Shown here: positions 9,035-24,699 of the stretch, one piece after another | How the letters are laid out: each line of letters begins with the position of its first letter | How positions within the stretch are numbered: position 1 is the first letter of the stretch | Source of the DNA: Saprospiraceae bacterium | GTDB lineage: Bacteria > Bacteroidota > Bacteroidia > Chitinophagales > Saprospiraceae | Reading direction: 5' to 3' | NCBI GenBank assembly: GCA_043786955.1 | Contig: JAYVVO010000256.1 | Location: 1-32,347 of the forward strand | DNA: 32,347 bases | The notes under the pieces: generated by a model | Databases searched by the model: none | What the model saw: only the letters and a program-made list of their open reading frames with translations | Told to the model about the DNA's origin: nothing | Position numbers and translations under genes: made by a program

Positions 9035-9037
9035 AAA

Positions 9038-9118: not shown

Positions 9119-9120
9119 TT

Positions 9121-10239
9121 TTAGAACAAATCGAATTTGAATAATCTACTCTCAATAGGTCCGTTAAACAACGGAATGCGGCGCGAAGTTTTTAAACCTA
9201 TAAATTTTGCAGCTTCTAAATTTCCTGTAAAAATCCAGGCTTGCCAACCCTTCCAATTGTGTTTGAGTGCATCGCCGATGCCTTTATAGAATGCAATTGC
9301 ATCTTCAAGTTTTATTCTGTCATCATACGGCGGATTAATAATTAAAACACCTGGTTCGGTTTCAGGATGCAGCGTAAAAAAATCTTGCTTTTTTAAAGTT
9401 ATGTTTCTAAATCCTGCGTATTGGATATTTTTTTTGCACGCATTAATCGCTTTCATTTCTATATCCGATCCATAGATACTGTAAGGAGTTTTAATCTCAC
9501 CACTATCAAATGTATTTCGTACGCGCTGCCAAGTGTTGGTTTCAAAATTATTCCAATGGAAAAAACAAAACTGCTCGCGGTATTTCTGAATCGGTGTATT
9601 GGTAGCGATGAATGCTGCTTCAGTTAAAAAAGTTCCTGAACCACACATAGCATCATACATAATTTTATCCGATGTCCAACCACTCAATCGCAAAATACCA
9701 GCTGCTAAAGTTTCGTTGATCGGTGCGTCTGAATTGCTTTGTTTGTATCCGCGTTTGTGCAACGAATCACCTGAAGCATCTAAAGCTACTTCTACTTCCG
9801 TGTCGTGAATTTTTATATGAATGCGAATATTCGGTGAGTCGTTCTCAACATTCGGTCGGCGATTAAATTTTTCTCTAAAAGCATCGGCGATGGCATCTTT
9901 TGCTTTCAAACTTACAAAATGCGAATGATTAAAATGTTTTGAACTGACGATGGAATCAATTGCAAAAGATTTATTCACGCTGAATAAATCTACCCAAGTT
10001 ATTTCGCGTATTCCGTTGTAAAGTTCGTCTTGGTTTTCTGCTTTGAATGTATGAACTGGCATTAAAATCCGCACAGCAGTTCGCGCTGTGTAATTCGCAG
10101 CGTACATTAAATACGTGTCGCCTTCAAAACTTACGCCGCGTTTAGTGGGTATAATATTTTCTGCACCAAGATCTTTTAATTCTTCGCATAAGGTTTCTTC
10201 CAAACCCGAAAAAGTTTTCGCAAATAATTTCATCTGCAA
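9121..10239 (-). CDS. THUMP domain-containing class I SAM-dependent RNA methyltransferase (RlmL/UPF0020-like)
   Basis: Family-typical N-terminus MKLFAKTFSGLEETLCEELKDLGA, SAM-binding DAMCGSGTF and catalytic NPPYD motif. The track start at 10239 is a TTG, so the ATG at 10233 is the more likely start. Confidence 0.85.
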   Translation of the reverse strand: MQMKLFAKTFSGLEETLCEELKDLGAENIIPTKRGVSFEGDTYLMYAANYTARTAVRILMPVHTFKAENQDELYNGIREITWVDLFSVNKSFAIDSIVSSKHFNHSHFVSLKAKDAIADAFREKFNRRPNVENDSPNIRIHIKIHDTEVEVALDASGDSLHKRGYKQSNSDAPINETLAAGILRLSGWTSDKIMYDAMCGSGTFLTEAAFIATNTPIQKYREQFCFFHWNNFETNTWQRVRNTFDSGEIKTPYSIYGSDIEMKAINACKKNIQYAGFRNITLKKQDFFTLHPETEPGVLIINPPYDDRIKLEDAIAFYKGIGDALKHNWKGWQAWIFTGNLEAAKFIGLKTSRRIPLFNGPIESRLFKFDLF

Positions 10240-10483: not shown

Positions 10484-13400
10484 CTAAATCCAATACCTCA
10501 GTGACTCCCAAAATGAAAAACGGCTACGATAAAAGGGAATAATGGTTTTGGTCTTTTGTTCTATAGGCGAAAGGGGCATGGGCACGGTGGTGAAAACAAT
10601 AGTAGCAGCACCGGTGGCGGTACAACCGTTGGCATCCGTGACGGTCACGTTATAACCGCCTGCACTGAGATTGTAAACGGAGGCAGAAGTGGCACCGTTG
10701 CTCCAAGAGTAGGTGTAGGGTTTGGTGCCACCGGTGGCAGTGACAGTTGCGACACCCGTGCCGTTATTGCAATTGGTGGTTACAACAGCGGTAGTGGCAG
10801 ACAAAGTAGGAGGTGCAGAGATGACAACCGAGGCAATCTTTTGACAAAGATTATCAGTAACGGTTACAGTATAGGTACCTACAGCTATGTTAGAGAGCGA
10901 TGCAGTGGTGGCACCTGTATTCCAGGCATAGGTGACAGTTCCACTGTTGCCAGAAACCGTCACGGAAGCTGCGCCAGTGCTGCCGCCATTACATTTGACG
11001 TTGGTGCCGCTGGCAGTCGCTGTCAATGTGCACACTGGATCATTTAAAGTGACGCTGCAACTGACGGTACAACTGTAGGCATCTGTGACGGTAACAGTAT
11101 AGGTGCCAAAGCTAAGACCAGAAATACTTGAAGTTGAAGCTCCACTACTCCAGAGATAACTGAAAGGTGCCGTGCCACCGCTTGTTGTTACGGATGCTGT
11201 GCCATGTGTACCTTTGATGGTAGTTGGATCGGTTTTGGCACACGCCACCCCTAAGATCGTGGATGATCCTGTCAGTGTATAACTATTCGATTTAGTGCAA
11301 CCATTGGCATCTGTGACGATGATGGTATATGTGCCCGCCCCAATGTTGGTTCTGTTGGCGGAATTGTTTGTGCCTGCCACATCTGCCCAGTCATAGTTAT
11401 AAGGCGAAACACCAGTAGAAGCACTGAGCGTAATGGAGCCAGTGGTGGTGGTACAGGTAATGGGCGTCAAAGTGGTAGTCAAAGTGATGGATCCTGGTTG
11501 TGATATAATGAATTGATTGGTATTGGTGCACCCAAGACCGTCCGTAACGGTCACGTCATAAGTGCTATCCGCAAGGTTCGTCCTGTTCTGAGTTGTCGTA
11601 CTATTTTCCCAAATGTAAGTATAGCCGCTTCCGGAACCGCCTGAAACAGTAAGGGTAATTGATCCGTTGGTGCCACCGTAACAAGTAGGATCGGTCGTGC
11701 TGCCAATAATCTTGACTACTGTAGGCTCTGTCAGCGTAGTGTATTTTGTGGTTGTGCAACCGTTATTGCCTGTAACGGTAACACTCCACCCATTGGCGTA
11801 CAAACCCGTTCTGTTTTGATTGGTGTTGCCGTCCTGCCAGTAATACGTGTAAGGTGAAACGCCGCCTGAAACCGTGAGTGTGATTGTGCCATTTGTTAAT
11901 CCGTTACAACTTGGATTGGTGAAGGAAGAATTCACCGTTGGTGCCGAAAGCGAAGAAATTACAACAGATGCCGTACCTGTACAGCCACCGGAGGTTGTAA
12001 CGGTGATGCTGTACGTTGCCGCAGATAAGCCTGAAATCGTGGTTCCGAAGCCGGAGCCGGATGTCGTGCCGTTTGACCAACTGTAAGTGTAAGGTCCGTT
12101 ACCGCCGCTGACCGTGTAATCTATAACCCCACTGTTGGGCAGATAACAGGTGGGTGATGTAGTTACAGAAGCGGAAACTGTGGGCGAACATACGAACAGC
12201 GTCGCTGTCTCATAGTCCGTAACAACGCCTTCAGTTCCTTCAGCGGCTGTGGCGGCAAATATATAATCTCCTGCAACCGGCGAGGTTAGAGCATATTCAT
12301 AGATTTTTGTGCATCCGATGGAGCCAACTGAAGAAGGAGTAACAGTACTCTTTGATCCGCTGGGCGTCGTAATAATTAAATTTAAGCCTGTTATATCGCT
12401 CGTTCCAAACGGATCACTCACATAAGCGCGGAGGTAACGTGTCGTACCTGCTGTACCTAAACTGATTATGGTGCCACTCGGATATGCCGCCGTGTATGCC
12501 GACAGTGTATCGATTAAGATATAGGTATAAGTAGGCATATCAATCTTCGAAGGGCTTGTTTTGGCACTAAAATATACTTTAAAAGCTACACCCGATTGTG
12601 AAGTGGTGATGTTCAAGACTACGGCTTGGCTCGCTGGAACAGTTACACCGCCGTTGGCTACGGTTCCTGTCCAAATCAAAGTGCCAGCGCCACTGTTGTA
12701 AGTCGGTGTTCCCAAAGTTACAATTGTGGTTGAACCGTATTTTAACGTAGCCGTAATATTAGGATTCGTAGGCATCGAACCCCCTGTTACACCAACGTAA
12801 GTCGTGACAGTAACAGTTTGGTTACCCGCCAAGGTAAATCCGCTACACATAGTCGGGCTTTGGGTGAACGAGACATTACTGACACCATTCAAACCATCGC
12901 CATAAGTAACTAAGGCGCCACCATCCGAGACGTTAGAAGTGGTGGAAGTCACACTTGTCCAAACATTACTGCTGATGTTATATCTGTAAAAAGGGGTTTG
13001 AATGTTGCCTTGCAATGCGTAAATATACGTGCCGTCAAAAGCCAAAGCCCCACCTTTGCTTACATTCGAAGGTACATTCGACAGCGTTGCCCAGATGTTT
13101 GTTGATTTATTGTATTGCCAAAAAGCATTCGTTGTGGCGCCTCTTAAACCATAAATATAGGTCCCATCATACGTTAAAGCACCACCTTGATTTACTGCGG
13201 ATGGCGTTGAGGCTAGGGTCGTCCAAGTATTCGATCCAATATTATAGCGCCAAAAATCAGTTAAGCTATTGCCTCTAAAAGCATAAATATTAGTACCATC
13301 ATATACCAAAGAGCCACCGTAAGCTACATTTGCTGGAGCAGAAGTCATAGCCGTCCAGGCATCAGTGCTGATGTTGTAACGCCAGAAATCAGTTAAGTTG

Positions 13401-16400
13401 TTTCCGCGAAATGCATAAATGTACCCACCGGCATACACTAAAGCACCACCTTGATTTACTGCGGATGGCGTTGAAGCTAGGGTCGTCCAAGTATTAGAGC
13501 CGATATTATAACGCCTGAAAGCAGTGGTAGTGTTTCCCTCGAGCGCGTAAATGTTCGTACCGTCATAGGTAAGGGAACCTCCTTGGTTCACAGTAGCCGT
13601 AGTGGCGGCTTTAGATGACCATGAATTGCCGGATATGCTGTATTGATAAAAAGATGTGCTGCTGCCGTAAAGCGCATATAAAGATTTCTGCGTACCCACT
13701 CCTAAAACAGAAGAGCTGTCTAAGGTTACATCGTTAGTAGAAACTGGATCCGTGCGGTTTAAAATTAAGGAAGAATTTAAGTAAAGTTGTTTACTTTGCA
13801 GCACAGGTGTAAGATTAGCTACAACAATCAATGTTGTTGAAGCACTCGAAGTGATACCCTCCGTACCTTCATTGGCAACGGCTTGAATGTTCCATGTACC
13901 CAAGATGACGTGGTTCGCAATTTTGTATTGATAAATGCTGCCGCAAGTGGTAGTTGCTACAATTTGCGGGCTGGTGAGCGTTGATGTCGTCACACCGCTG
14001 CTCGGATCGGTGATTGTCATGTTCACGCTGCTGATATCGGTAGCGCCGAAAGGATCGGTTACAGTTACGCGTACAAAAGAATTGCCACCTTGTGCATTGC
14101 TCGTGATAGCGGAACCGCCTGGATAAGTTGAATTATACACGGCAATGCTGCTGATATTTATGAAAGTGCTCGTTGGGATTGTTATTTTCGAGGGTTTGGA
14201 TATGCTGTTGTAATCAATTTTAAAAGTTGCACCCGCTTCCGCAGTGGTTATGTCTAACCCGATAGCTTGTCCTGCCGGTACAGTAACTGCGCCACCAGTT
14301 GTAGTCGCCCAGGTTAAAATACCAGTTGAACTGTTGAAGGATGGGTTTGTAAGCGTCGCAATGGTCGTCGCTCCGTATTTAAGCGTCGCTGTGATATTGG
14401 GTGAAGAAGGCATCGAGCCTGTTACAATGTTCGGATAAACCGTAACTTTTAAGTTTGTGATTGCAGGAATAGTTAAATTGCTGCACAATGCCGGATTTTC
14501 TGTAAAACTGACTGTAGAGTTAACCACAGCAGGTTTAATAGGGACTGCTAATAATGCCCATTCATGCGACGCACCTAAAGTCCATGACATCGTTGTGGAG
14601 GAAGCACCCGCTTTTGTGCTCGACAAACCATCTACCTCACTCAATACAATGTCACCATAAACTTTTGTCTGCCCAGAGGATGGTGTAACAGTGGTGTTTT
14701 GACGCGCATCCAATACATCAATCACCAATTGAGTCGAGGCTGAACTTACGGTGACTGAAGCTGATGTGGAATTGCCGGAGTTGGTCGCGTATGTTCCCAA
14801 TGGTGTCGTTTGATCAACACCTGAATACGTTACTACGCCTATAACACAACCCTTGCTACTGACCGCCTGAGTAAAATTGACGGAGACAATGTCTGTTCCA
14901 GATGTCGGATTGAGTAAGTAATACAAATACACAGCCGCATTGGTACCGTTTTTAATAGAGCCAACTTGTGTGAGCGTAGATGAACCATACGTCACAGAAG
15001 TAGGCAGACCCTTATCCGCTTTAAGCGAAATGCCGACAAGCATTAAGCGGTTCGCGCCCGAGCCAGTTGTATGATTCAGCGTTATCAGATTTACACTCGC
15101 TGCACTGGTTGTAGTTTTATTGTCGAAAGTGATGCCTCCTGCAACATTTGACAGCGTCGAAGTACTGTACGTTATCGTCGAATTCGTCGCAACCGGATCT
15201 GTTCGCGTAAGCGTTTGGGATGCCGACAATAAATATAAATATTTGTTCACATTACAGGTTGCAGTCACCGGCACACTGTAAGTTGTCGAGGCATTACATG
15301 CGCCATTATTTCCAGTCACGGATAGACTCAAAGTAAAAGATCCAATGGCAGTGGCAGTGACAGTTACACTTTGTCCGTTGGTCGCACTGGTGATGGTACC
15401 GTTACCTGTAATCGACCAAGCATAAGAACTTAAACCTGCTGAACCAGTGAATACCAAACCTATTGTACCAACACAAGTTGAGCTTATTCCGGTGATGGCA
15501 ACACTTAAACCCACCGTGATGTTTTGGCTGGAAGATGAGGAACACGTACTTTTTGTAGTCGTTAAAGTCAGCGTGTACGTTCCACTCGCGCCGGCAGTCA
15601 CACTCGCAGTTTGGCTCGTTGAAGACCCGACAATTGTTCCATTACCCGTTATTGACCAAGTGTAACTGTCTTGATTAGATGGTCCGTTGTAACTGTTGCC
15701 CGTTGAGGAGATACAAACCGCCACTGGTCCTGTGAAAGTACAACTGGGTGTTACGGGTGCGATATTGGTATTGGTGTCCACCTGATTACCGTACCAAAAC
15801 GTATTGATCGTATTGTTATTACCAAAATTGTAATTGGTCCAAGTATGCGCAGGCGTCGTTGAACGGTTGAATACATTAATTACCGGCTCACCAGAGCCAG
15901 AAGCCGCTCCAATGTTGGAATCATCCCACCCGATTTTAAGCGTAAAACTTGCTGTAGGCGTTGGTCGCACTGAAGTAGTGACATAACCATTGGTGTTATA
16001 TTCCACATCATAGACCGGAAAATTGAGCAAGCCTTGCAGATAACTTAGATATATCGGAATTGCCGCGCTCGTAGACACGGTTGCTCCCAAACCGTTTTTA
16101 CCATCCCAACTCAAGCAGCGTTTGTAGGGTGCTGTTTCTCCGTTTGCAGGCGTTATGGTTTGGTAAAGCAACACATCGGCTGTTCCTGGGTCGTATTTAC
16201 CAGCGCCCGAAGTTTGATTAAAATCCAAAAGAATTTGTGCTGTACCCGATAACGACGTAGCGTATGCAATACAAAGTGAACTGCTGCCCGAACAATTCAA
16301 AATGTAGGGTGCTGTGGTTATTGTTCCTAAGGTTCCAGATGGATAAACCAGTGAGTCAGGATTATTGAAAAATATCTTATATTGCGTCAGAGTCTGATTA

Positions 16401-17326
16401 CCTGTTACAGATTGTTTATCTACTGCGATGTTACCTGTATTGGCAGTACCAGTCGAATTAAAAGACAGCGTGAAAGCCAGACCTCTAAAACCTGAGTTTA
16501 AATAATTAAGTTTATTGACAAATCCGTCGCTGCTGTAAGTGTAAACAGTACCATTAAAAGGGCGATCGTAATAATTGTATGTCGGGTCACTACCCTGGCT
16601 TATTGAAGGCGTTCTGAATGACCAGTTTTTAGACCAAAGTCGTCCGTCTAAAGCTTTTGGAGACGTTCGGGTTGCTACAGTTATGTCCCAATATTTAATA
16701 GTGAGTAAGCTGGAAGTTGCACCGCTAGTGTTATCGCTGAATTCGATATAATAATCTCCAGAGGCAGCGCCATTTGCGGGTGTAAAAGTAAAAGGCGTGT
16801 ATCCGCTTGCTCCAACAATAGGAGAAGGTCCTGTTGTGGCTAAAGCCCAGGTATTCGCATTCGCATTAGCACTACTAATCTGTTGAGGTCCAAAAACGAC
16901 ATTGCCGTTAGGGTCCATAATACGGAAGTAATAAGGTATCGTGATAAAATTACCATCATTGCCCGATGATTGACTCGTGGCTTGAGAAAGTCCGATATAA
17001 ACTTGCTCCGTGCTTGCACTGGTAATATGGATGTATAACCGATTATCGACAAGTGCGTTAAAATTTGCAAAGTTTGAAAAATTAGAATCCCCTATGAGCA
17101 ATTGCGCAATATCGCTTGATGATGGGGCGGCTTGTTTTGTCCCTTCTGCATGAGCCTGGGTTAACGCTGAAAGCACCAGTGCTAACCATAAAAACAAAAA
17201 GCCAAGAATTCCTGATGGAAACTTACGGAAAACGTATACCAATAAATTCCTATTATAGCCGCCCTGCAGGGCGACTATAATAACGAGCAACAAATTACAA
17301 ACTACAAATAACGAATATTTAACCAT
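10484..17326 (-). CDS. Giant (2280 aa) multidomain cell-surface adhesin-like protein. Order: N-terminal ~500-aa domain, 2 Cys-containing Ig-like repeats, a jelly-roll-like module, module A, a 6-blade Kelch propeller, module A', and 7 SprB-type repeats. No recognisable C-terminal T9SS sorting domain.
   Basis: ORF track. Kelch-type blades of 44 aa (YIYAFRGNNLTDFWRYNI..W..). SprB-type repeats (C.GG.TG...V.VSGG..PYTY.W......YTVTVTD..GC). Signal-like segment GILGFLFLWLALVLSALTQAHA. The true start may be the TTG at 17242. Confidence 0.9.
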   Translation of the reverse strand: MVKYSLFVVCNLLLVIIVALQGGYNRNLLVYVFRKFPSGILGFLFLWLALVLSALTQAHAEGTKQAAPSSSDIAQLLIGDSNFSNFANFNALVDNRLYIHITSASTEQVYIGLSQATSQSSGNDGNFITIPYYFRIMDPNGNVVFGPQQISSANANANTWALATTGPSPIVGASGYTPFTFTPANGAASGDYYIEFSDNTSGATSSLLTIKYWDITVATRTSPKALDGRLWSKNWSFRTPSISQGSDPTYNYYDRPFNGTVYTYSSDGFVNKLNYLNSGFRGLAFTLSFNSTGTANTGNIAVDKQSVTGNQTLTQYKIFFNNPDSLVYPSGTLGTITTAPYILNCSGSSSLCIAYATSLSGTAQILLDFNQTSGAGKYDPGTADVLLYQTITPANGETAPYKRCLSWDGKNGLGATVSTSAAIPIYLSYLQGLLNFPVYDVEYNTNGYVTTSVRPTPTASFTLKIGWDDSNIGAASGSGEPVINVFNRSTTPAHTWTNYNFGNNNTINTFWYGNQVDTNTNIAPVTPSCTFTGPVAVCISSTGNSYNGPSNQDSYTWSITGNGTIVGSSTSQTASVTAGASGTYTLTLTTTKSTCSSSSSQNITVGLSVAITGISSTCVGTIGLVFTGSAGLSSYAWSITGNGTITSATNGQSVTVTATAIGSFTLSLSVTGNNGACNASTTYSVPVTATCNVNKYLYLLSASQTLTRTDPVATNSTITYSTSTLSNVAGGITFDNKTTTSAASVNLITLNHTTGSGANRLMLVGISLKADKGLPTSVTYGSSTLTQVGSIKNGTNAAVYLYYLLNPTSGTDIVSVNFTQAVSSKGCVIGVVTYSGVDQTTPLGTYATNSGNSTSASVTVSSASTQLVIDVLDARQNTTVTPSSGQTKVYGDIVLSEVDGLSSTKAGASSTTMSWTLGASHEWALLAVPIKPAVVNSTVSFTENPALCSNLTIPAITNLKVTVYPNIVTGSMPSSPNITATLKYGATTIATLTNPSFNSSTGILTWATTTGGAVTVPAGQAIGLDITTAEAGATFKIDYNSISKPSKITIPTSTFINISSIAVYNSTYPGGSAITSNAQGGNSFVRVTVTDPFGATDISSVNMTITDPSSGVTTSTLTSPQIVATTTCGSIYQYKIANHVILGTWNIQAVANEGTEGITSSASTTLIVVANLTPVLQSKQLYLNSSLILNRTDPVSTNDVTLDSSSVLGVGTQKSLYALYGSSTSFYQYSISGNSWSSKAATTATVNQGGSLTYDGTNIYALEGNTTTAFRRYNIGSNTWTTLASTPSAVNQGGALVYAGGYIYAFRGNNLTDFWRYNISTDAWTAMTSAPANVAYGGSLVYDGTNIYAFRGNSLTDFWRYNIGSNTWTTLASTPSAVNQGGALTYDGTYIYGLRGATTNAFWQYNKSTNIWATLSNVPSNVSKGGALAFDGTYIYALQGNIQTPFYRYNISSNVWTSVTSTTSNVSDGGALVTYGDGLNGVSNVSFTQSPTMCSGFTLAGNQTVTVTTYVGVTGGSMPTNPNITATLKYGSTTIVTLGTPTYNSGAGTLIWTGTVANGGVTVPASQAVVLNITTSQSGVAFKVYFSAKTSPSKIDMPTYTYILIDTLSAYTAAYPSGTIISLGTAGTTRYLRAYVSDPFGTSDITGLNLIITTPSGSKSTVTPSSVGSIGCTKIYEYALTSPVAGDYIFAATAAEGTEGVVTDYETATLFVCSPTVSASVTTSPTCYLPNSGVIDYTVSGGNGPYTYSWSNGTTSGSGFGTTISGLSAATYSITVTTSGGCTGTASVVISSLSAPTVNSSFTNPSCNGLTNGTITLTVSGGVSPYTYYWQDGNTNQNRTGLYANGWSVTVTGNNGCTTTKYTTLTEPTVVKIIGSTTDPTCYGGTNGSITLTVSGGSGSGYTYIWENSTTTQNRTNLADSTYDVTVTDGLGCTNTNQFIISQPGSITLTTTLTPITCTTTTGSITLSASTGVSPYNYDWADVAGTNNSANRTNIGAGTYTIIVTDANGCTKSNSYTLTGSSTILGVACAKTDPTTIKGTHGTASVTTSGGTAPFSYLWSSGASTSSISGLSFGTYTVTVTDAYSCTVSCSVTLNDPVCTLTATASGTNVKCNGGSTGAASVTVSGNSGTVTYAWNTGATTASLSNIAVGTYTVTVTDNLCQKIASVVISAPPTLSATTAVVTTNCNNGTGVATVTATGGTKPYTYSWSNGATSASVYNLSAGGYNVTVTDANGCTATGAATIVFTTVPMPLSPIEQKTKTIIPFYRSRFSFWESLRYWI
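10600..12190 (-). other. Seven SprB-type repeats (approximate bounds)
   Basis: Repeats end in YSITVTTSGGC, WSVTVTGNNGC, YDVTVTDGLGC, YTIIVTDANGC, YTVTVTDAYSC, YTVTVTDNLC and YNVTVTDANGC. Confidence 0.75.
12895..13700 (-). other. Six-blade Kelch-type beta-propeller (approximate bounds) inside the giant protein
   Basis: Six 44-aa units with GG.L.YDG..IYA..G.....F..YN...N.W. Blades 2 and 4 share a ~77-nt nearly identical DNA stretch (13439..13515 vs 13175..13251). Confidence 0.75.
17254..17279 (-). promoter_or_regulatory. GC-rich stem-loop (11-bp stem, UGCA loop) in the sense RNA between the fibre gene stop and the probable adhesin start
   Basis: Plus strand reads TATAGCCGCCCTGCAGGGCGACTATA. 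The minus-strand RNA UAUAGUCGCCCUGCAGGGCGGCUAUA pairs fully with one G-U wobble. The plus-sense RNA would have a C-A mismatch at that position. Confidence 0.5.
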
Positions 17327-17335
17327 TAATAATTT

Positions 17336-19927
17336 TTAATTTTTTGCGTCCCGCATTTCCGGCTGTTTAACCTTCTCTATTTTAAGGGAGAGCTGACTGA
17401 ATAAAAGTTCAAACCGAGTCGACATTTCCGTCATTTTATTATTCAATTTTTCAATCTCTTCTTTTTGTGCTTCCAACTTTTTTGCCATGTGGGCATTATC
17501 ATTTTCGAGCGTTTCCATTTTGGTATTCTGTTCTTTTACCGCATTTATCAAAATGTATACCAACGCCGAAGGATCGTATAAACGTTGGTCTGGAAAAGCG
17601 GATGTTTTTACTTTCTCGACCATATACGGCGCAATTTTTTCAATTTCTTGGGCGATAACCCCTATATATTGCTTGGATGTATCGTTGTAACCGCTCAGCC
17701 CATTATACTGAAATTGGACAGGATGAATCTGCTTTAAAAGCGATAAACCATCACTGTATGGCGCAATATTTTTTTTGATTCTATAATCCGAAAAGGTGGA
17801 CCAAGCACCACCCCCGCTTTTTGAAGCCCCACCATTAACCGACAGCAATTGATCCGGCACGGTCGTTCCGATGCCCAATTTTCCATTAGATGTCAAGCGC
17901 ATATATTCAGTATTGGTGGTTCTAAAAACCAAATCGACAGCATCGGTTGTGCCTAAGAAGTTGGTCGTGGCTGAAGTGCCGCTGTTGCCTGTTTTTGTCC
18001 AAGCGAGCGCATTAGTAGAAGACCACGATAAATTGCCGGTGGCATCACTCGTTAAAATGGTATTTGTAGATGTTGGCGCCGTGAGTGGTAAGATGTAGTT
18101 GATATTGGCGCTTTGTACGCCGGCTTTGAAAGAGGTATAGAACGCCCCAGAGTAGGTAAGAGAGGAATTAGGGCTATAAAAACTCAAGGCTTTGGCGGCA
18201 TTATTTACATTACCCAGCCATACATCAACATCACCAAAATATGCGATATTGGTATTGGCAGACACGTTAGGTTTATTGGCATTGGATGTATAACCATTAA
18301 AGCCTACTGAGTTATCGCCCAGCGTTAAACCATAACCGCCCAGAATGCCCGCGTTTGATCCAGAAGCTGTATTCGATTGCCCGCCCAGGATACCAGCATA
18401 ATTGTTCGAAACGGTGTTAAGATAACCCGTCAGAATGCCATTACTCGAGCCTGTGGTGATTTTGTTGGACTGTCCGCCGCCGATAATACCACTAATGCCG
18501 CCACTGTTATTGTTAATGCCTGCCACCACTGCTGCATAGTTAGCGCTGGTAGTATCGGTAGCGCCCCCCCCTATGAACGAGTAAGAATTGATGGCATTGT
18601 TGAAATAGCCACCGCTCACGGTGGCGTAAGATGCCTGCACCTTGTTCGATATGCCACCCCCGATAACAGTGTTGTTGGAACCCGTAGAAATCGTATTGCT
18701 CGAACCACCGCCAATGAAGGAATAATCACCAGCAGTCGAATTATTATTACCACCCACCAATGTCGCAATACTGCCTGACGCCGTATTCGAACTTCCACCT
18801 CCTAAAAAAACACTCGCGTTACTGGCAGTGTTGGAGAGTCCACCTAAGACGCTCGAAAAGTCTCCCGATGCGGTATTTCCGCTGCCACCGACCAGTGTTG
18901 AATACGATCCGCCTGATACATTGGTAGTGCCAGCACCGACGAAAGACAGTAACCCGGAAGCCGTGTTGCTTTGTCCACCCACTAATGTCGCCAGATTACC
19001 CGAGGAAATATTGGTGCAACCGCCGCCTAAGAATACGTTTATATTATTGGCGAGGTTCGATTTGCCACCACCGACAACTGCTAAACTGCCAGAAGCAGTA
19101 TTATTTTGTCCACCACCAATAAAAGAATAGGTACCGCTTGCCACTTGAGCGGACGTCGTCCTAAAATTCTGCAAATCCACTGCATAGGCGCCGCGTGTAA
19201 CACCACCCGCATCGCGCAACAAACTATAATTGGTGTCCAATTTAAAAGCCTGAATGTTATTTACCCTAAATGCAAGCGGCACATTATCGGTTGTACCCAG
19301 AAAATTTGTTCCGTTGACTGTGCCTGAGTTGCCAAGAATATTCCAAGCATTAGATACAACTTGTGGTATGGATAACCTGCGAACTATTCCGGAACTTGAT
19401 GTTAAAATAGAGTCAGTGGTTGCACCTGCGCTTAGTCCCAACAATCTTAGCGGGTTGCCCAAACTAGCAGTTTGAGCGTCAATATCCAGTTTGTAAGAAG
19501 GAGCGGCTGTATTAATACCTACATTTCCACCTGATAAAATTCTTAGTTTTTCAGTATTGTTGGTTTTAATTACTAAATCTTGAGCATTAGTTGTTCCTAA
19601 AAAATTTGTCGATGGTGTCGTATTAGAATTACCCAATATTGTCCATGCGCCTAAATTAGCAGCACTACATTGGCTTTTCCAACTCGATGAATAAAAGCAC
19701 ACACAGTTAGAATCCAGATTAAACACCATTAAACCCAAAGTAGGCGAAGTTATGGCATTCATCTGAACTGTTGTCATGCGTGGAATAAGTAAGCCTTTAG
19801 TTATACTCGCTACATCTAAGGCGGCAGAAGCAGATTTAGCCCCTGGTAAATCACCAATTTTCAAATCGGTCTGCGCCCAACTCTTGGCTGATAAAAACAA
19901 AAAAAATATGTAGAGAAATTTTCTCAT
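17336..19927 (-). CDS. Tail-fibre-like surface protein. Order: signal peptide, conserved N-terminal domain, W.ILGN...NFLGTTD motifs, Hep_Hag-like Gly/Ser/Asn repeats, S74-type intramolecular chaperone (endosialidase chaperone) domain, C-terminal coiled coil.
   Basis: Signal MRKFLYIFFLFLSAKSWAQ. Repeats of GG.SNTASG..A.LVGG across roughly aa 265-540. SDYRIKKNIAPYSDGLSLLKQIHPVQFQYN...YIGVIAQEIEKIAPYMVEKV matches the Peptidase_S74 pattern. Heptad-rich tail KMETLENDNAHMAKKLEAQKEEIEKLNNKM. Confidence 0.9.
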   Translation of the reverse strand: MRKFLYIFFLFLSAKSWAQTDLKIGDLPGAKSASAALDVASITKGLLIPRMTTVQMNAITSPTLGLMVFNLDSNCVCFYSSSWKSQCSAANLGAWTILGNSNTTPSTNFLGTTNAQDLVIKTNNTEKLRILSGGNVGINTAAPSYKLDIDAQTASLGNPLRLLGLSAGATTDSILTSSSGIVRRLSIPQVVSNAWNILGNSGTVNGTNFLGTTDNVPLAFRVNNIQAFKLDTNYSLLRDAGGVTRGAYAVDLQNFRTTSAQVASGTYSFIGGGQNNTASGSLAVVGGGKSNLANNINVFLGGGCTNISSGNLATLVGGQSNTASGLLSFVGAGTTNVSGGSYSTLVGGSGNTASGDFSSVLGGLSNTASNASVFLGGGSSNTASGSIATLVGGNNNSTAGDYSFIGGGSSNTISTGSNNTVIGGGISNKVQASYATVSGGYFNNAINSYSFIGGGATDTTSANYAAVVAGINNNSGGISGIIGGGQSNKITTGSSNGILTGYLNTVSNNYAGILGGQSNTASGSNAGILGGYGLTLGDNSVGFNGYTSNANKPNVSANTNIAYFGDVDVWLGNVNNAAKALSFYSPNSSLTYSGAFYTSFKAGVQSANINYILPLTAPTSTNTILTSDATGNLSWSSTNALAWTKTGNSGTSATTNFLGTTDAVDLVFRTTNTEYMRLTSNGKLGIGTTVPDQLLSVNGGASKSGGGAWSTFSDYRIKKNIAPYSDGLSLLKQIHPVQFQYNGLSGYNDTSKQYIGVIAQEIEKIAPYMVEKVKTSAFPDQRLYDPSALVYILINAVKEQNTKMETLENDNAHMAKKLEAQKEEIEKLNNKMTEMSTRFELLFSQLSLKIEKVKQPEMRDAKN
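17530..17791 (-). other. Peptidase S74 / intramolecular chaperone auto-processing domain (approximate bounds)
   Basis: Begins at Ser713 of SDYRIKKNI (codon at 17789..17791) and runs through GVIAQEIEKIAPYMV and LVYILINAVKEQ. Confidence 0.75.
18564..18571 (-). repeat. G8 homopolymer (sense strand) inside the fibre CDS, encoding the GGG of FIGGGAT
   Basis: Plus strand reads gcgCCCCCCCCtatg. Codons are ATA GGG GGG GGC on the minus strand. Confidence 0.9.
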
Positions 19928-19952
19928 GTTCAGTTATCATTTTATCAATGGT

Positions 19953-20059
19953 TAATGGTTAATGTTTAATGGTTAATTCCATGCATAATTAACCATTAAC
20001 CATTAAACATTATTTATTGCCTTGAGTGAGTTTGTCGGTCTTAATTAGACCTTGAGTGA
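19953..20059. promoter_or_regulatory. Leader/spacer element: 26-nt-arm GGTTAAT-array hairpin plus two CCTTGAGTGA boxes, directly upstream of the S74 fibre gene
   Basis: Arms 19953..19978 and 19987..20012 pair at 24 of 26 positions around loop CCATGCAT. CCTTGAGTGA at 20020..20029 and 20050..20059 flanks a GGTCT/AGACC mini-hairpin. Confidence 0.6.
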
Positions 20060-20114
20060 AGTAAAGATTCTTAAAAAATAAAAAGATGGGGGGAAATAAA
20101 GTTAAGTAAGATGT

Positions 20115-20190
20115 GTTATGAGTGATGAAAAGCAACTCATAACCAACAACTCATAACTTATTTATGCAATAACTTATTTATGCAATAACT
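20115..20190. repeat. Short repeats just downstream of the 768-aa gene stop: a GTTATGAGT/ACTCATAAC hairpin, duplicated AACTCATAAC (14-bp phase), and a 16-bp tandem AACTTATTTATGCAAT x2
   Basis: Stem 20115..20123 / 20135..20143. AACTCATAAC at 20134..20143 and 20148..20157. Tandem copies at 20155..20170 and 20171..20186. Confidence 0.8.
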
Positions 20191-20200
20191 AAACCAAAAA

Positions 20201-22507
20201 TTATTCACTGTAAATCCACCAATTCGTGCCATCGCAAACTACGCGGTATTTTCTAGCAAAATTTATACTCGAAATGGTCGTTGTTTCAGTTAAGCTCAAT
20301 GCAGGAGAGAAAGTTACAGAATTAGTAGTCTCATCAGATTTCCCAATCGAATAAGTTCTTCCTTTAAGGGTTGCACTTGCGGTAGGGAGAGTTAACGTAA
20401 GCGCGCCTGAAGTAGCATTTGCTAAAACAATTAAATCCAAAGCAGTAATTGTGTAGTTGGAAGTTACTTTTTGATATGATACACCCATTGAACCTGTCAA
20501 CTGCAAAGTTGAATTAGGTGATGTTGTTTGACCAATCGCTACATTACCACCAGAATAGTTAATATCAAATCCCGCCTGAGTGATGGCAGTCGCTTGAACT
20601 AATGCACCGCCCAACTGAACATTTGAACCTGTTTTAGTCAAACCGTTATTGGCAGTAAAACTGTTTGAGACAACGTTTGCAACACTTAATCGATTTATTT
20701 TACCCGTTGTAGGATTTACTGAAACCAATGAATCAGTTAAAGCACCACTTGCCAACGAAGTCACGTTTAATGTTGTACCATTGATATTTGTTGTTGAAGC
20801 AGCATTACCAATATTTGTTGCAGTTGCAGAAGTTCCTGTATTAACGTTTGTAGCACCCAAAACAGTTGTTGTTGATGCTGCGTTACCAATATTAGTTGCT
20901 GTTGCAGAAGCACCCGTGTTGATTGATGTTACACCTGTCACACCCGTTGTTCCATTAATTGTTACGGCACTACTTGCATTACCTATTGTTGTCGCCGCCG
21001 TACCTGTGGAATTAACATTAGTTGCACCAAGAACAGTTGTTGTACTTGTAGCATTACCAACATTAGTTGCACCTGTACCTGTTGCATTGATGTTAGTTGT
21101 TCCGTTTGCAAGCGTTAAAGCAAAAGTAGCTTGGTCAATACTCGTATTTGCAACCAACGGTCCACCCAAAGCAACATTACTACCCGTTTTAGTCAAACCG
21201 TTATTAGCAGTAAAACTATTTGAAACAATGCTCGCAATGTTTAAAGTATCGGCTTTGCCTGTTGATCTATTCACTGAAACAAGTGCATCAGTAGTTAAAC
21301 CACCTGCTGGTAATGATGGAACGATTAAACTCGTACCATTAATTGTTGTTGTTGAAGCAGTATTACCAATATTAGTTGCTGTTGCAGAAGTTCCTGTATT
21401 AACGTTTGTAGCACCCAAAACAGTTGTTGTTGACGCTGCATTACCAATATTTGTTGCTGTTGCAGAAGCACCCGTGTTGATTGATGTTACACCTGTTACA
21501 CCCGTTGTTCCATTAATTGTTACGGCACTACTCGCGTTGCCAATGGTTGTCGCCGCCGTGCCTGTGGAATTAACATTAGTTGCACCAAGAACAGTTGTTG
21601 TACTTGTAGCATTACCAACATTAGTAGCACCTGTACCTGTTGCATTGATGTTAGTTGTTCCGTTTGCAAGCGTTAAACTAAAAGTAGCTTGGTCAATACT
21701 CGTATTTGCAACCAACGGTCCACCCAAAGCAACATTTGAACCCGTTTTAGTCAAACCGTTATTGGCTGTAAAACTATTTGAAACAATGCTCGCAATGTTT
21801 AAAGTATCGGCTTTGCCTGTTGCTCTATTCACACCAATAATCGCATCAGTAGTTAAAGAACCTGTTGTCAAAGCTGGAAAATATAAATTGTTACCATTAA
21901 TATTGGTCGTTGAAATGGCTGTACCAATATTTGTGGTATTTGCACCAACAGTATTAATGTTTACGAAACCAGCACCAGCAACTGGACCTGTAATAGTTGC
22001 ACCAGCATTAGCTGTAACAAAACCCGTTAAATTAACGGCGCCTAACCCCGTTTGATTAATATTACCTGCGGCATCTATTCTCAATCTTTCCGTCGCGTTC
22101 GTTTTTAAAACCAAAGGCTGACCATCAGTAGTTCCTAAAAAGTTTGTAGTTGGATTTATGCCTGTGTTACCAAATAAACTCCAAGCATTAAATCCGCCAC
22201 ACGTACTATACCAACCTGAAATACCGCGATACACGTAAATACATGAGTCGGTAGTATTGTAAATTTGTAAACCCACTGCTGGATTTGAAATAGATGCCAT
22301 TTGAGCTGGAGACATTCGCGGCATTAAAAAACCTTTCGTCGTGCTTTCTAATTCGAGTACAGCAGACGCTTGTTTGTTACCTGGATTTGTACCAATTTTT
22401 ACATCTGTTTGAGCGAACGAAATATTTAAACCCAAAAAGATAATTAAGGCAGTACCAAAAATTCTGAAAGAAAACTTTTTAAAAGCTTGTAAAATAAATA
22501 AATTCAT
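20201..22507 (-). CDS. Fibre-like surface protein paralogous at its N-terminus to 17336..19927. Thr/Asn/Gly/Ala-rich repeat shaft with a large internal tandem duplication and a distinct ~100-aa C-terminal globular domain.
   Basis: Signal/anchor then QTDVKIGTNPGNKQASAVLELESTTKGFLMPRM, which aligns to QTDLKIGDLPGAKSASAALDVASITKGLLIPRM in the other fibre. WSLFGNTGINPTTNFLGTTD motif. 186-aa unit repeated. C-terminus ...LTLPTASATLKGRTYSIGKSDETTNSVTF...VVCDGTNWWIYSE. Confidence 0.9.
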   Translation of the reverse strand: MNLFILQAFKKFSFRIFGTALIIFLGLNISFAQTDVKIGTNPGNKQASAVLELESTTKGFLMPRMSPAQMASISNPAVGLQIYNTTDSCIYVYRGISGWYSTCGGFNAWSLFGNTGINPTTNFLGTTDGQPLVLKTNATERLRIDAAGNINQTGLGAVNLTGFVTANAGATITGPVAGAGFVNINTVGANTTNIGTAISTTNINGNNLYFPALTTGSLTTDAIIGVNRATGKADTLNIASIVSNSFTANNGLTKTGSNVALGGPLVANTSIDQATFSLTLANGTTNINATGTGATNVGNATSTTTVLGATNVNSTGTAATTIGNASSAVTINGTTGVTGVTSINTGASATATNIGNAASTTTVLGATNVNTGTSATATNIGNTASTTTINGTSLIVPSLPAGGLTTDALVSVNRSTGKADTLNIASIVSNSFTANNGLTKTGSNVALGGPLVANTSIDQATFALTLANGTTNINATGTGATNVGNATSTTTVLGATNVNSTGTAATTIGNASSAVTINGTTGVTGVTSINTGASATATNIGNAASTTTVLGATNVNTGTSATATNIGNAASTTNINGTTLNVTSLASGALTDSLVSVNPTTGKINRLSVANVVSNSFTANNGLTKTGSNVQLGGALVQATAITQAGFDINYSGGNVAIGQTTSPNSTLQLTGSMGVSYQKVTSNYTITALDLIVLANATSGALTLTLPTASATLKGRTYSIGKSDETTNSVTFSPALSLTETTTISSINFARKYRVVCDGTNWWIYSE
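20627..21850. repeat. About 2.3 tandem copies of a 555-558-bp (185-186 aa) unit inside the 768-aa fibre gene
   Basis: The same ACC CGT TTT (GLTKTG) landmark occurs at 21740, 21182 and 20627. Copies 1 and 2 encode an essentially identical ~150-aa core. Confidence 0.85.
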
Positions 22508-22524
22508 AAAAATAAAAATTTAAA

Positions 22525-22775
22525 TGGTTAAAGAAAAGATTTTTTAATAATGGTTAATTATTAATGGTTAATGGTTAATGCCGCTCAAGGCAACGGATTT
22601 AACCTTGAGTGAGCCGCTCGATATTAACCATTAATTATTAATGGTTAATATCACTCAAGGCAACGGATTTAACCTTGAGTGAGCCGCTCGATATTAACCA
22701 TTAACCATTAACCATTAATAATTAACCATTAATAATTAACCATTAATAATTAACCATTAACCATTAACCATTAAC
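22525..22775. promoter_or_regulatory. Repeat-built spacer upstream of the 768-aa fibre gene: four alternating GGTTAAT/ATTAACC arms around two identical 51-bp cores, plus an ATTAACC/ATTAATA tail array
   Basis: Identical 51-mers at 22584..22634 and 22654..22704 (70-bp period), each holding a CTCAAGG..CCTTGAG stem. Perfect 19-bp inverted repeat 22561..22579 / 22693..22711. 16+1+16 palindrome at 22620..22652. Confidence 0.7.
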
Positions 22776-22786
22776 AACTAAATCAG

Positions 22787-24676
22787 CTAGCGCACTAAAA
22801 CTAAATCGCGTGCATATTTTTTTCTTGTTCCATCAATAAATTGTGCTTCAACTATCACCGCAAATGTTCCAAGACTTAATTGTTTTCCTCTAAAAGTACC
22901 ATCCCATGTTACAGAACCGTCAGGTGCAAAATCACTTGCTTCAAAAATTAATGCACCCCAACGATCAAAAATTTGCATTTTCAATACGTGTACTTTACTC
23001 GGATTTCCGAGAACAGTGTATTCCTCTTTTTCTGGTTTAAATATATTCGGTACATAAAGCGCGTATCTATCGTCCTTATTGACTTTAATAGTTATCTCAT
23101 CCGAAGCGGAACAACCTAATGAATCGAGAACCAAAACTTTAAAAATTGTTTCGCGTTCAATTTTAGCCGTAGTCGTTGGGCAATTTATACAACTCACAAT
23201 ATCAGGTGGTAGCCATTGCCAATATTTAGGATTGTATAAAATGTCGGTACTTTTTGTGCTGAGTTTGACAGTCGAACCTTCAAAAACTATCAGAGAATCA
23301 GATATTATTTTGATGGGTTTTAGTGCAGGCTCTTTAATAATTATAACTGTGTCTAAAGGACAAAATTTCGGACTTTCAATGTGAACACTATAACTCGTTG
23401 CCGAAAGATTTTTAAGTTTATCTGGCGTGACAGTTACATTATTTACCGTAATCGTCATACCTGTTACATCTGATAAAAAATTGATAGCGCCGTCGCTTCT
23501 GCCGTAGCACGTTGTGTTTCGCGTGGTAATTTTAACAGATGGCAGCGTTTTGACTAAAATAGTATCACTGTGCGCCACATCGCAAGAATCCCAAGCAAAG
23601 ACATAATATTTTCCAGCGGTGTTGACATTAATAATTTTTGTTTCTTCGCCCGTTGACCATTTATACCGTTTAAATCCAGTTCCAGCATCAAGCGGGATAG
23701 ATTTACCATTGCACACAATATTATTGCCCTTAATTTTTACAGCGTTAACCGATGTGAAGCAACGTACATCTTTTTGCGCCAAAGCAAAAGTAAAAACAAA
23801 AAAACTATCAGGCACCACTGCACGAGAAGTTATTCTGCCATTTTTTAAATCACCTTGTTCGTTTATAACACCTAAATTAATCCACCGCGCGCCATTCCAA
23901 GACACAATAGTCAATCTGTTTAAATCAGAATTGGTAAGCGTTGCGATTTGGCTCTTCTGATTCCAAGTCAATGTAACTGTTACCGGTGCATCGCCTTTTA
24001 TGTGCCAATATTCAATCGTACTTACTTGCTGAATAATATCTTCTTTTTGGGTTGTATTAAAAGGTGCGCCTGTTGGTAGCGTTGCAGTGTTAGGGCTTCC
24101 ACGAAAATAACAAGCAATACTACTGATTAATCGCGTATCTAAATTTGTAATAATTGCGGGACGAAACTCTGCCTCATCACCGATCGGAAAAGCGAAAGTA
24201 TCTCTAACCGTTTTGGCAACGTAACCATCTATGTGTCTATCGTCAGCGACATTTTTGTAAGTTGCATTATTCAAAAAATCAACTAAAAAGTTTGGGTTAA
24301 TTCTCGAGGTGTGTATGATGCCCTTGTTAAAATTAAGGAGTCGCGTTATTCCAATATACAAATTAGTGTAGAGACCCTTAGAGTTGTTTAGCTCCAAAAA
24401 TTCAAAATCAACGGGCATTGGTCCGTCAAAATTTTGCTTTTTGTTATAGATGCCATTAAAATAAACTGAACCTCTGTTGTTTCTGAATACACCGTTTTCA
24501 GTCCATGAGCCATAAATGCCCACGCTTGCATCCGGGTGCATTTTAATATTCGTCGAATTGTAAGCGTCATTTTGAGCCAACAGTGGGAAGGAAGCGAATA
24601 ATAAAAAAATAATAAAAATGTTCAAGTAAATTTTAAAATGACACTCTAAACTTCTGTTCAGGTTGTTCGAGTACAT
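22787..24676 (-). CDS. T9SS type-B sorting-domain protein (gliding-motility-associated C-terminal domain, CHU_C type) with an N-terminal domain of unknown function and one SprB-like repeat
   Basis: Signal IFIIFLLFASFPLLAQ. C-terminus YVPNIFKPEKEE...MQIFDRWGALIFEASDF...WDGTFRGKQLSLGTFAVIV...DLVLVR fits the type-B CTD pattern. CYGRSDGAINF resembles a SprB repeat start. Confidence 0.85.
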   Translation of the reverse strand: MYSNNLNRSLECHFKIYLNIFIIFLLFASFPLLAQNDAYNSTNIKMHPDASVGIYGSWTENGVFRNNRGSVYFNGIYNKKQNFDGPMPVDFEFLELNNSKGLYTNLYIGITRLLNFNKGIIHTSRINPNFLVDFLNNATYKNVADDRHIDGYVAKTVRDTFAFPIGDEAEFRPAIITNLDTRLISSIACYFRGSPNTATLPTGAPFNTTQKEDIIQQVSTIEYWHIKGDAPVTVTLTWNQKSQIATLTNSDLNRLTIVSWNGARWINLGVINEQGDLKNGRITSRAVVPDSFFVFTFALAQKDVRCFTSVNAVKIKGNNIVCNGKSIPLDAGTGFKRYKWSTGEETKIINVNTAGKYYVFAWDSCDVAHSDTILVKTLPSVKITTRNTTCYGRSDGAINFLSDVTGMTITVNNVTVTPDKLKNLSATSYSVHIESPKFCPLDTVIIIKEPALKPIKIISDSLIVFEGSTVKLSTKSTDILYNPKYWQWLPPDIVSCINCPTTTAKIERETIFKVLVLDSLGCSASDEITIKVNKDDRYALYVPNIFKPEKEEYTVLGNPSKVHVLKMQIFDRWGALIFEASDFAPDGSVTWDGTFRGKQLSLGTFAVIVEAQFIDGTRKKYARDLVLVR

Positions 24677-24691
24677 TTAAAAATTATTAAC

Positions 24692-24699
24692 GGGGGGGG
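24692..24699. repeat. G8 (C8 on the sense strand) homopolymer 15 nt upstream of the ATG of the 629-aa gene
   Basis: Sequence ttaaCGGGGGGGGaatt read directly. Confidence 0.9.

Follow-up and report, generated by a model that had tools for sequence, protein, structure and literature searches.

Four large genes on one strand of a Saprospiraceae contig encode proteins with features of the cell surface, and the question that this locus raises is whether they build one apparatus or lie side by side without a common function. The stretch of DNA analysed here, hereafter the window, comprises 32,347 nucleotides of contig JAYVVO010000256.1 (assembly GCA_043786955.1, Saprospiraceae bacterium, positions 1 to 32,347 of the forward strand). 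On its minus strand, open reading frames (ORFs) for proteins of 629, 768, 863 and 2280 aa form an island between a THUMP/RlmL methyltransferase gene (9121-10239) and the pyruvate carboxylase gene pyc (24930-28391). They encode, respectively, a cargo protein of the type IX secretion system (T9SS) with a type-B C-terminal sorting domain (CTD), two fibres, called fibre 2 and fibre 3 below, and a giant protein. A preliminary description had interpreted these genes as a co-evolving, possibly phase-variable fibre and adhesin apparatus linked to T9SS. Our ORF scan of the window agrees with it on the coordinates of the four genes and on their flanks, and detected no further independent ORF of at least 100 aa within the island. 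The idea of a T9SS-linked fibre apparatus stands for the family of the 629-aa protein and for the fibres; it does not stand for the giant protein, for the apparently missing carrier of the cargo or for the repeat leaders.

The explanation that we favour, with slightly better than even confidence, is that of a full surface locus of six genes, a part of which was skipped in the window; its fibres would be akin to the mosaic adhesive trimer (MAT) fibres of Bdellovibrio, and the 629-aa cargo, through an N-terminal domain named here p629N, would be their partner. Domains were called by profile searches with Pfam, NCBIfam, PHROG and in-house hidden Markov models (HMMs); it should be added that ORF calls and in-house HMMs were crude. 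Coordinates of all features are compiled in Table 1.

Fibre genes and the p629N cargo beside them

The 863-aa and 768-aa proteins have an N-terminal domain (N-domain) in common, as had been described (47% identity over 139 aa, E = 3e-35), and both begin with Sec-type signal peptides read from the sequence (…SWA/QTD and …SFA/QTD). The same N-domain was found in a third fibre, of 581 aa, introduced below, and in 79 of 80 fibre loci from genomes of other species. Precomputed Pfam annotation assigns PF26696, “PTL_trimer”, to the fibres, and PF26696 together with PF13884 to a protein identical to the 863-aa fibre; PF26696 was located within the fibres by the agreement of these precomputed calls with our N-domain HMM. 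The family comprises at least 3999 proteins, and at least 563 genome loci were confirmed, in Saprospiraceae, Chitinophagales, Flavobacteriales, Cytophagales, Bacteroidales, Ignavibacteriota, Kapaibacteria and Chlorobiota. Tandems of two to seven fibre genes occur in 37 of the 80 loci, and an S74 domain is encoded in 40. The AlphaFold2 (AF2) monomer model of the N-domain was mediocre (pLDDT, the predicted local distance difference test, 72.8; pTM, the predicted template modelling score, 0.44), and its Foldseek search returned weak matches only, namely to N-domains of CBA120 tailspikes, to the collagen XVIII trimerisation domain and to Bdellovibrio fibres, all of them nevertheless in keeping with a trimeric fibre.

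Fibre 3 indeed carries a Peptidase_S74 chaperone domain (Pfam, 48.3 bits, residues 713-770), the catalytic SDxxxK motif of which is intact as SDYRIK (residues 713-718); autocleavage before Ser713 is predicted. Its C-terminus furthermore matches the chaperone domain of MYRF (PDB 7dc3), and its central repeats match the head of UspA1 (PDB 3pr7, E = 6.6e-13) as well as an ice-binding protein with a left-handed beta-roll. These repeats had been called Hep_Hag-like, which is acceptable in the sense of the UspA1 match and not in that of the Pfam family: neither Hep_Hag nor YadA_anchor matched the 863-aa fibre even at E ≤ 10. Thus, fibre 3 is similar to the heads of trimeric autotransporters (UspA1/YadA) in its shaft repeats and differs from these proteins in lacking the Hep_Hag match and the YadA membrane anchor, and in bearing S74 at the C-terminus.

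Fibre 2, for which no match was obtained in the Pfam library searched, is built of modules of 558 nt (186 aa). Its length is 582, 742 or 768 aa depending on the assembly, which may be real variation or an effect of the assembly of repeats. A tip domain of about 105 aa ends both the 768-aa and the 581-aa fibre and is C-terminal in 21 of 22 homologues, as counted with a strict tip HMM (two other models, “f581C” and “f768C”, drifted onto the NFLGTTD module and were not used); a search for sequence matches of the 768-aa tip in the PDB gave none. The idea that the tip is a cryptic T9SS CTD was rejected: the hhalign probability was below 1% against either CTD type, with a positive control at 88%.

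According to Caulton et al. 2024 (PMC10769870), the MAT fibres of Bdellovibrio possess a signal peptide, a beta-rich, conserved domain ~130 aa long, a trimeric shaft and swappable tips, and form S74 and non-S74 subfamilies; S74 domains, with the motif SDxxxK, drive the folding of the trimer and then cleave themselves off. The present fibres are alike in the signal peptide placed directly before a conserved, beta-rich N-domain of ~130 aa, in the long repetitive shaft followed by either S74 (SDxxxK) or an alternative small C-terminal tip, in the existence of many paralogues with swapped tips, and in the cellular rather than phage context. Trimeric surface fibres were reported there, and the likeness here is one of sequence architecture.

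The fibres also have much in common with fibres and tailspikes of phages, such as the K1F endosialidase and the T5 L-shaped fibre: S74 with an intact Ser-Lys motif, matches of PHROG tail-fibre families to the C-terminal part of the 863-aa protein (the S74 end), and the occurrence of both N-domain halves in IMG/VR contigs, in many cases within or at the extreme end of ORFs whose beginnings resemble those of ordinary phage fibres. One could hence consider the island a degraded prophage, a tailocin or another phage-derived remnant, with the S74 fibre and its paralogues as a leftover tail module. We hold this to be highly improbable. Capsid, terminase, baseplate, tape-measure and integrase genes were absent from the island and its flanks, housekeeping genes border it on both sides, all fibres have Sec signal peptides instead of a virion-attachment context, the locus is chromosomal and syntenic beside pyc in another species, and the cellular fibre loci, at least 563 in number, usually place fibres in tandem with other exported proteins. 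The modules are common to these fibres and to phages, yet the genes at this locus are cellular, in accordance with the cellular context previously proposed for the S74 fibre.

It should also be mentioned that, in several IMG/VR loci (L157, L173, L181, L189 and others), the first half of the N-domain (…SA.L.L.ST.KG.L.PRMT…) forms the very C-terminus of fibre ORFs of phage type that have no signal peptide. Cellular and phage fibres thus use the same N-domain module at opposite ends.

In the 629-aa protein, the predicted type-B (CHU_C) sorting domain was recovered by Pfam with 38.1 bits (cutoff 27; residues 543-611), and the NCBIfam type-B model TIGR04131 scored 29.5 bits, below its cutoff of 35. 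Its N-terminal p629N domain of ~250 aa had no sequence match in Pfam, NCBIfam, PHROG or the PDB; a sequence-profile search of the PDB produced chance-level matches to NELL2 only, and Foldseek of the p629N model against the PDB nothing below E = 0.03. Profile searching revealed 19 homologues. Signal peptides are present in the p629N proteins, and most of the complete homologues showed a CTD, of type A or of type B.

The association of p629N with fibres was assessed in both directions. In the forward test, the 80 fibre loci of other species were inspected for p629N within 10 kb, and a p629N protein was encoded beside the fibres in 10 of them. Three of these (L020, L024, L027) carry CHU_C and are followed by a PorP gene; a type-A CTD was identified by in-house HMM in L023, L038 and L052 and by Pfam in L033 (Por_Secre_tail, 39 bits); L062 had no detected CTD, and L076 and L098 were cut by the contig end. 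In the reverse test, a metagenome scan with the p629N alignment yielded 24 non-self loci, in 9 of which the p629N gene has a fibre gene as its immediate neighbour. Moreover, fibre genes adjoined all five p629N homologues looked up with independent precomputed annotation (Tenacibaculum, a metagenome-assembled genome (MAG) of Paludibacteraceae, and others), and the ~980-aa neighbours in the Paludibacteraceae MAG were confirmed as fibres by our HMMs. Altogether, the adjacency was recorded in Saprospiraceae, Chitinophagales, Flavobacteriales (Tenacibaculum), Cytophagales (Dyadobacter), Bacteroidales, Ignavibacteriota and Kapaibacteria. Both CTD types and both gene orders are represented. Where a p629N homologue has CHU_C and enough downstream sequence is available, PorP_SprF comes next, and in two loci (L208, L210) a PD40/OmpA (PorE-like) gene stands after PorP_SprF. 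These data support the functional link between the family of the 629-aa protein and the fibres that had been supposed at first.

A control within the same loci points in the same direction. A T9SS CTD was found in 19 of 93 same-strand fibre neighbours (20.4%) and in 25 of 583 other ORFs (4.3%), i.e. an odds ratio of 5.7 with Fisher p = 6e-7, a value that is optimistic in that the loci come from different species and are not phylogenetically independent, which counts against our explanation. Neighbourhoods of this kind could also arise if the island were a hot-spot, its four or six genes being unrelated, independent adhesins that accumulate at a repeat-rich, recombination-prone site, the proximity of T9SS genes being due to shared regulation or to the abundance of such cargo. 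Such a view would suit the 70 of 80 fibre loci without p629N, the N-domain of the giant protein, never seen beside fibres elsewhere, the strong spacer hairpins, which could be terminators, and the two further type-A cargo genes nearby in the window. We consider it unlikely, since the p629N-fibre adjacency recurs across the groups named above irrespective of CTD type and gene order, the within-locus control differs as stated, and gene order is kept among orthologous loci at 35-80% identity.

Two observations on the wider neighbourhood should be added. In Dyadobacter and related loci (L033 6659-14787, L062, L104 4900-11122, L107 and L119), a pair of an S74 fibre and a p629N protein with type-A CTD is divergent from a Reg_prop/Y_Y_Y histidine kinase of ~1015-1030 aa, which suggests sensor-controlled expression of the fibre/p629N module. 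In L033, the pair is followed by a protein with pAdhesive_15 and Por_Secre_tail.

Full gene order and the segment skipped in the window

The type-B cargo gene had been described as lacking a PorP/SprF-like partner, with nothing else encoded in the island. That is correct for the window as given and incorrect for the organism. Contigs of several other metagenome assemblies encode an identical or 99%-identical 863-aa protein, and the exact 629-aa protein is encoded on 9 other contigs. In L003, L004 and L005, which are 96-99% identical to the window, the order is pyc, 629-aa protein, a 372-aa PorP_SprF protein (Pfam, 88.9 bits), 581-aa fibre, 582/742-aa fibre, 863-aa fibre and giant protein. L013-L016, with an identical 629-aa protein, all run on into the PorP gene, and every contig that is long enough (L003-L005, L013) also shows the 581-aa fibre. 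Hence, the full locus reads pyc, 629-aa cargo, PorP/SprF, fibre 1 (581 aa), fibre 2 (582-768 aa), fibre 3 (863 aa, with S74) and giant protein. In L004, the fibre-1 gene is split; a frameshift was rejected as the reason, the split being a run of N in a scaffold gap.

The same order exists beyond the population. In the orthologous locus L024 of another Saprospiraceae species (pyc 91% identical at the amino acid level), pyc is followed by homologues of the 629-aa protein (80%), PorP (82%), fibre 1 (79%) and fibre 2 (63%), and L020 and L027 have the same gene order at 35-54% identity.

The breakpoint can be placed precisely. L016 is 100.000% identical to window positions 26375 to 22706 and then diverges inside an array of the heptamer GGTTAAT, continuing into PorP, and the segment L003 4329-7497 has no counterpart in the window. 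In the full locus, the same GGTTAAT arrays follow the 629-aa gene, PorP and fibre 1. The window spacer 22543-22787 combines the left arm of the first of these elements with the third element's interior and right arm, the interior being inverted relative to L013, and the junction at ~22706 is supported by no other contig. About 3.2 kb, with the PorP/SprF gene and fibre 1, was skipped within the heptamer arrays. Because sibling and orthologous loci carry both genes and the junction is seen in no other contig, the gap and the “orphan” type-B gene are most likely due to a collapse of the assembly across repeats. The alternative is a rare repeat-mediated deletion.

The carrier allows a comparison with the gliding adhesin SprB and its partner SprF in Flavobacterium johnsoniae, where type-B cargo remains attached at the surface to its PorP/SprF carrier and a Cys-X-Cys motif in the periplasmic tail of SprF links it to the gliding track (PMC12635249). 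As with SprB/SprF, a PorP_SprF gene comes after the CHU_C type-B cargo gene in every sibling and orthologous locus. Unlike SprB, the cargo protein here, with its 629 aa, is small, and its N-domain is novel; the carrier gene is absent from the window, and the C-terminal tail of the locus PorP homologue (…VVTPRFF, GEVYDRPHVVTPRFF) has no cysteines and so no Cys-X-Cys. In view of this tail without the motif that joins SprF to the gliding track, the carrier is probably part of a static anchor rather than of a gliding adhesin.

Giant protein, intergenic hairpins and variable tracts

The SprB and Kelch modules announced for the 2280-aa protein were recovered by Pfam: SprB (PF13573) scored 142 bits in 7 stretches, besides Kelch_1/3/4/6 and PKD_6. 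Neither Pfam nor NCBIfam detected a T9SS CTD. The protein ends 34 residues past the last SprB repeat (…FWESLRYWI), and this end is identical in 4 independent assemblies, therefore the CTD-less end is not an assembly artefact of the window. Its own N-domain (residues 61-520; window 15767-17146) has no match in the Pfam and NCBIfam versions used and defines a family of 822 representative clusters at 50% identity, always N-terminal and in large proteins of up to 4285 aa (P0140-P0289). Among family members of at least 900 aa, 58 of 104 have a type-A or type-B CTD at the end; the others may be truncated or genuinely CTD-less. The closest relatives, P0142 and P0144, have a conserved CTD-less C-terminus in common (…ERCCPP.ICLP…), and a CTD-less subfamily may exist. 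In comparison with the SprB gliding adhesin, SprB repeats are present; a type-B CTD and an adjoining SprF with Cys-X-Cys were not found, and according to the window ORFs no PorP/SprF gene adjoins the giant gene.

The distance of 9 bp between the 863-aa and the 2280-aa gene (17327-17335), which had been noted before, is kept in sibling contigs, so co-transcription of the giant gene with fibre 3 is probable. The inclusion of the giant protein in an apparatus of four co-occurring families was not borne out: its N-domain is absent from all 80 genome fibre loci and all 24 metagenome p629N loci of other taxa, and in L027 unrelated genes come after the fibres. The giant gene appears to be a lineage-specific neighbour outside the conserved unit. 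The G+C content (guanine plus cytosine) is raised over the giant gene and fibre 3, 0.40-0.48 vs ~0.32-0.41 elsewhere in the window.

Table 1. Positions of genes, domains, hairpins and homopolymer tracts in the window
Feature	Coordinates	Strand	Evidence and remarks
629-aa T9SS type-B cargo gene	22787..24676	-	ORF; signal peptide, p629N, SprB-like Ig repeats, CHU_C CTD
p629N domain (residues 47-299), all-beta	23780..24538	-	AF2 pLDDT 77.6, pTM 0.78
CHU_C / type-B T9SS sorting domain (residues 539-629)	22790..23062	-	Pfam and in-house HMM
768-aa non-S74 fibre (fibre 2)	20201..22507	-	ORF; signal peptide, N-domain, three ~186-aa shaft modules, ~105-aa C-terminal tip
N-domain of 768-aa fibre (~PF26696 PTL_trimer)	22013..22414	-	Sequence comparison and in-house HMM
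863-aa S74 fibre (fibre 3)	17336..19927	-	Signal peptide, N-domain, UspA1-head-like beta-roll repeats, second NFLGTTD module, S74, coiled coil
N-domain of 863-aa fibre (residues 19-150)	19478..19873	-	Sequence comparison and HMM; AF2 model
Peptidase_S74 chaperone, SDYRIK motif	17618..17791	-	Pfam
2280-aa giant protein gene	10484..17326	-	Family-specific N-domain, PKD, Kelch propeller, SprB repeats; without T9SS CTD
GGTTAAT heptamer-array hairpin with breakpoint (~22706)	22535..22781		Inverted repeats; fold -110 kcal/mol, z = -13.8
AATGGTT/AACCATT heptamer hairpin, spacer before 863-aa gene	19946..20019		Fold z = -6.2
Poly-C tract (gene strand), 15 nt upstream of 629-aa ATG	24692..24699	+	C8 in window; length polymorphic between assemblies
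G8 tract in 863-aa coding sequence (Gly codons)	18564..18571	-	Not length-variable

The repeat leaders ascribed to the fibres, i.e. GGTTAAT arrays and CTCACTCAAGG/CCTTGAGTGA stems, are present as described and confined in the window to the two inter-fibre spacers, which fold into very stable hairpins (z from -4.7 to -13.8). What could not be upheld is that they are fibre-specific, co-evolving elements. Hairpins of tandem heptamers also occur between unrelated genes of the window, at 620-645 (AAGCTCA)n, 9034-9123 and 29274-29373 (GTTGTTA)n. The fibre spacers of L003 (5540-5640, 7410-7500) have arms of GAGCTAT/AGCTCAA type instead, with a different sequence at the site of the hairpin before the 863-aa gene, and those of L024 (6050-6200) have arms of GATAAGT type. 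The heptamer of the arms thus varies from site to site and, at one site, from strain to strain, with z of about -4 to -14 overall. Since they also lie between unrelated genes and their arms differ in L003 and L024, these hairpins are a genome-wide class of intergenic elements and not leaders specific to fibres.

In the fibre spacers, the hairpins end 24-45 nt before the fibre start codons, which makes us regard them as 5'-leader or intercistronic structures and not as elements that precede a promoter. They resemble REP-like elements (repetitive extragenic palindromes) and, we presume, the STRR heptamer repeats (short tandemly repeated repetitive sequences) of cyanobacteria, and they appear to break or collapse short-read assemblies. 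Rfam gave no match anywhere in the window, heptamer hairpins included. A scan for sigma-70 promoters and terminators performed no better than on shuffled sequences, the model being not applicable to Bacteroidota, and TAnnTTTG boxes were not enriched.

Possible phase variation had been proposed on the grounds of two G8 tracts. Both exist in the window (vs 0.12 expected), and only one of them varies. The poly-C tract upstream of the 629-aa gene is C7 in L003-L005, C8 in the window as well as in L015 and L016, C9 in L017 and L018, and C10 in L013 and L014, and its length differs among contigs with 99.9-100% identity in its surroundings; in the closest other species, only C4TC stands at this site. 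This fits a hypermutable tract. A Bacteroidota -7 box could not be placed with confidence relative to it. The tract in the coding sequence of fibre 3 was rejected as a site of phase variation: L003-L008 have GGGGGTGG (G5TG2) at this place and L001 and L002 have G8, with constant length.

The region around the island is generally rich in secreted proteins. Just outside it lie two more T9SS type-A cargo genes, 3781-5919 (DUF4331) and 6027-8261 (PLD-like), both with Por_Secre_tail. The PLD-like gene is intact in the window (744 aa) and is split into 510 + 205 aa in contig L009 (2995-5232), with ~180 bp (window ~6690-6873) unaligned, so that assemblies of one population differ structurally here as well. 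A perfect three-copy tandem repeat of GATGTTTTTTTTAT (5989-6030) extends from the 3' end of the PLD-like gene into the intergenic region. Furthermore, a penicillin amidase ORF (minus strand, 638-3220) contains, at window 2323-2455, tandem repeats of 15 nt between the copies of a perfect inverted repeat of 24 nt that is palindromic in itself (AGACGTTGCATGCAACGTCT); this stretch is in frame and encodes an Asn/Thr/Ser-rich insert of ~45 aa (…VETLHATSNTMSNNTTSNTTTNN…NETLHATS…). Its position is presumably about that at which penicillin acylases carry an excised spacer peptide.

Proposed appendage and its significance

Under the explanation that we favour, the fibres would be homotrimers exported by Sec. 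S74 would drive the folding of the fibre-3 trimer, after which fibre 3 would shed its last 151 residues. The 629-aa protein would be exported by T9SS and then bound to the PorP/SprF carrier at the surface, where p629N may serve as a dock, or as an export or assembly partner, for the fibre N-domains, as gene neighbourhood suggests. The variable fibre tips would point outward as adhesins, and the giant protein would be a lineage-specific addition co-transcribed with fibre 3. Variation may come from the copy number of shaft modules, from tip swapping with phage fibres and from the presumably hypermutable poly-C tract before the first gene.

A more general form of this scheme, which we put forward as a tentative possibility, is a so far undescribed two-part surface appendage of Bacteroidota and of Ignavibacteriota/Kapaibacteria, in which trimeric, phage-tail-fibre-like fibres without T9SS signals dock via their N-domain on, or are co-exported with, p629N cargo that is held at the surface by PorP/SprF (type B) or by the type-A attachment route. 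Alternatively, the fibres may be anchored and exported without T9SS, as in Bdellovibrio, with p629N as a co-regulated accessory (such as an enzyme or lectin with the same target) or as an assembly or quality-control factor comparable to phage fibre assembly proteins. MAT fibres do reach the Bdellovibrio surface without T9SS (PMC10769870). The p629N gene lies directly downstream of the fibre gene in most loci, as phage fibre chaperone genes do, and the p629N fold has no recognisable relatives. On the other hand, signal peptides and the mostly detectable T9SS CTD would take p629N out of the cell and not to a periplasmic folding site, and its type-B versions come with a dedicated surface carrier. 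We therefore judge this alternative distinctly unlikely.

Several points weigh against the favoured explanation, in addition to the optimistic p-value given above. The docking role of p629N is read from gene neighbourhood only. Fibres do not generally need a p629N partner, because 70 of the 80 fibre loci are without a p629N gene within 10 kb and Bdellovibrio displays MAT fibres without T9SS. The passage of a CTD-less trimer through the outer membrane is not explained by the model. The junction in the window may stem from a true deletion, and the strain would then be without the carrier. Finally, the sole link to Bdellovibrio N-domains is a protein from a MAG labelled Bdellovibrionaceae (P0057; phmmer E = 3.6e-4, PF26696 precomputed), where the affiliation is that of the MAG label only; Foldseek of the N-domain against Bd3182, Bd1334 and Bd2439 gave weak local matches (E > 0.4).

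Compared with known systems, every part belongs to a kind already known, namely MAT-like fibres, a type-B cargo with carrier, and a giant protein with SprB repeats. The setting differs from that of Bdellovibrio MAT fibres in the host phylum, which has T9SS, and in the tandem fibres beside p629N T9SS cargo and, for type B, a PorP/SprF carrier; a term search of the MAT paper (PMC10769870) brought up nothing comparable to the p629N/PorP partner. A further parallel is offered by the grappling hook of Aureispira (Saprospiraceae), an extracellular multimeric appendage made from a T9SS substrate and anchored by downstream-encoded PorP- and PorE-like proteins (bioRxiv 10.1101/2024.01.29.577165). The order in L208 and L210, namely CTD cargo, PorP and PD40/OmpA, matches its GhpA-GhpB(PorP)-GhpC(PorE). 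However, GhpA is a 5,898-aa heptamer of Ig-like domains with its own CTD, and the fibres here are CTD-less and phage-fibre-like. New with respect to the literature searched, which held no mention of PF26696 or PTL_trimer and no link between S74 fibres and T9SS, are the widespread, specific pairing of fibres with a T9SS cargo and the novel p629N domain.

To our knowledge, cellular fibres resembling phage tail fibres have so far been studied in one predator only, Bdellovibrio. The present data show that MAT-like architecture is very common in Bacteroidota and has a recurrent, specific genetic partner among T9SS substrates. For annotation, they define the previously unannotated p629N family and indicate that an “orphan” type-B cargo gene most likely results from repeat-rich intergenic elements, through collapse or rare deletion. 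In practical terms the importance is moderate, the parts being of known kinds and the functional link coming from gene neighbourhood only. The attachment of the fibres to the cell was left open in the Bdellovibrio work (PMC10769870), and p629N cargo is a concrete, testable candidate for the missing anchor. If the proposed docking or co-export is true, it would extend what T9SS is known to place on the cell surface: the system would then present, indirectly, an entire exchangeable set of phage-like adhesive tips.

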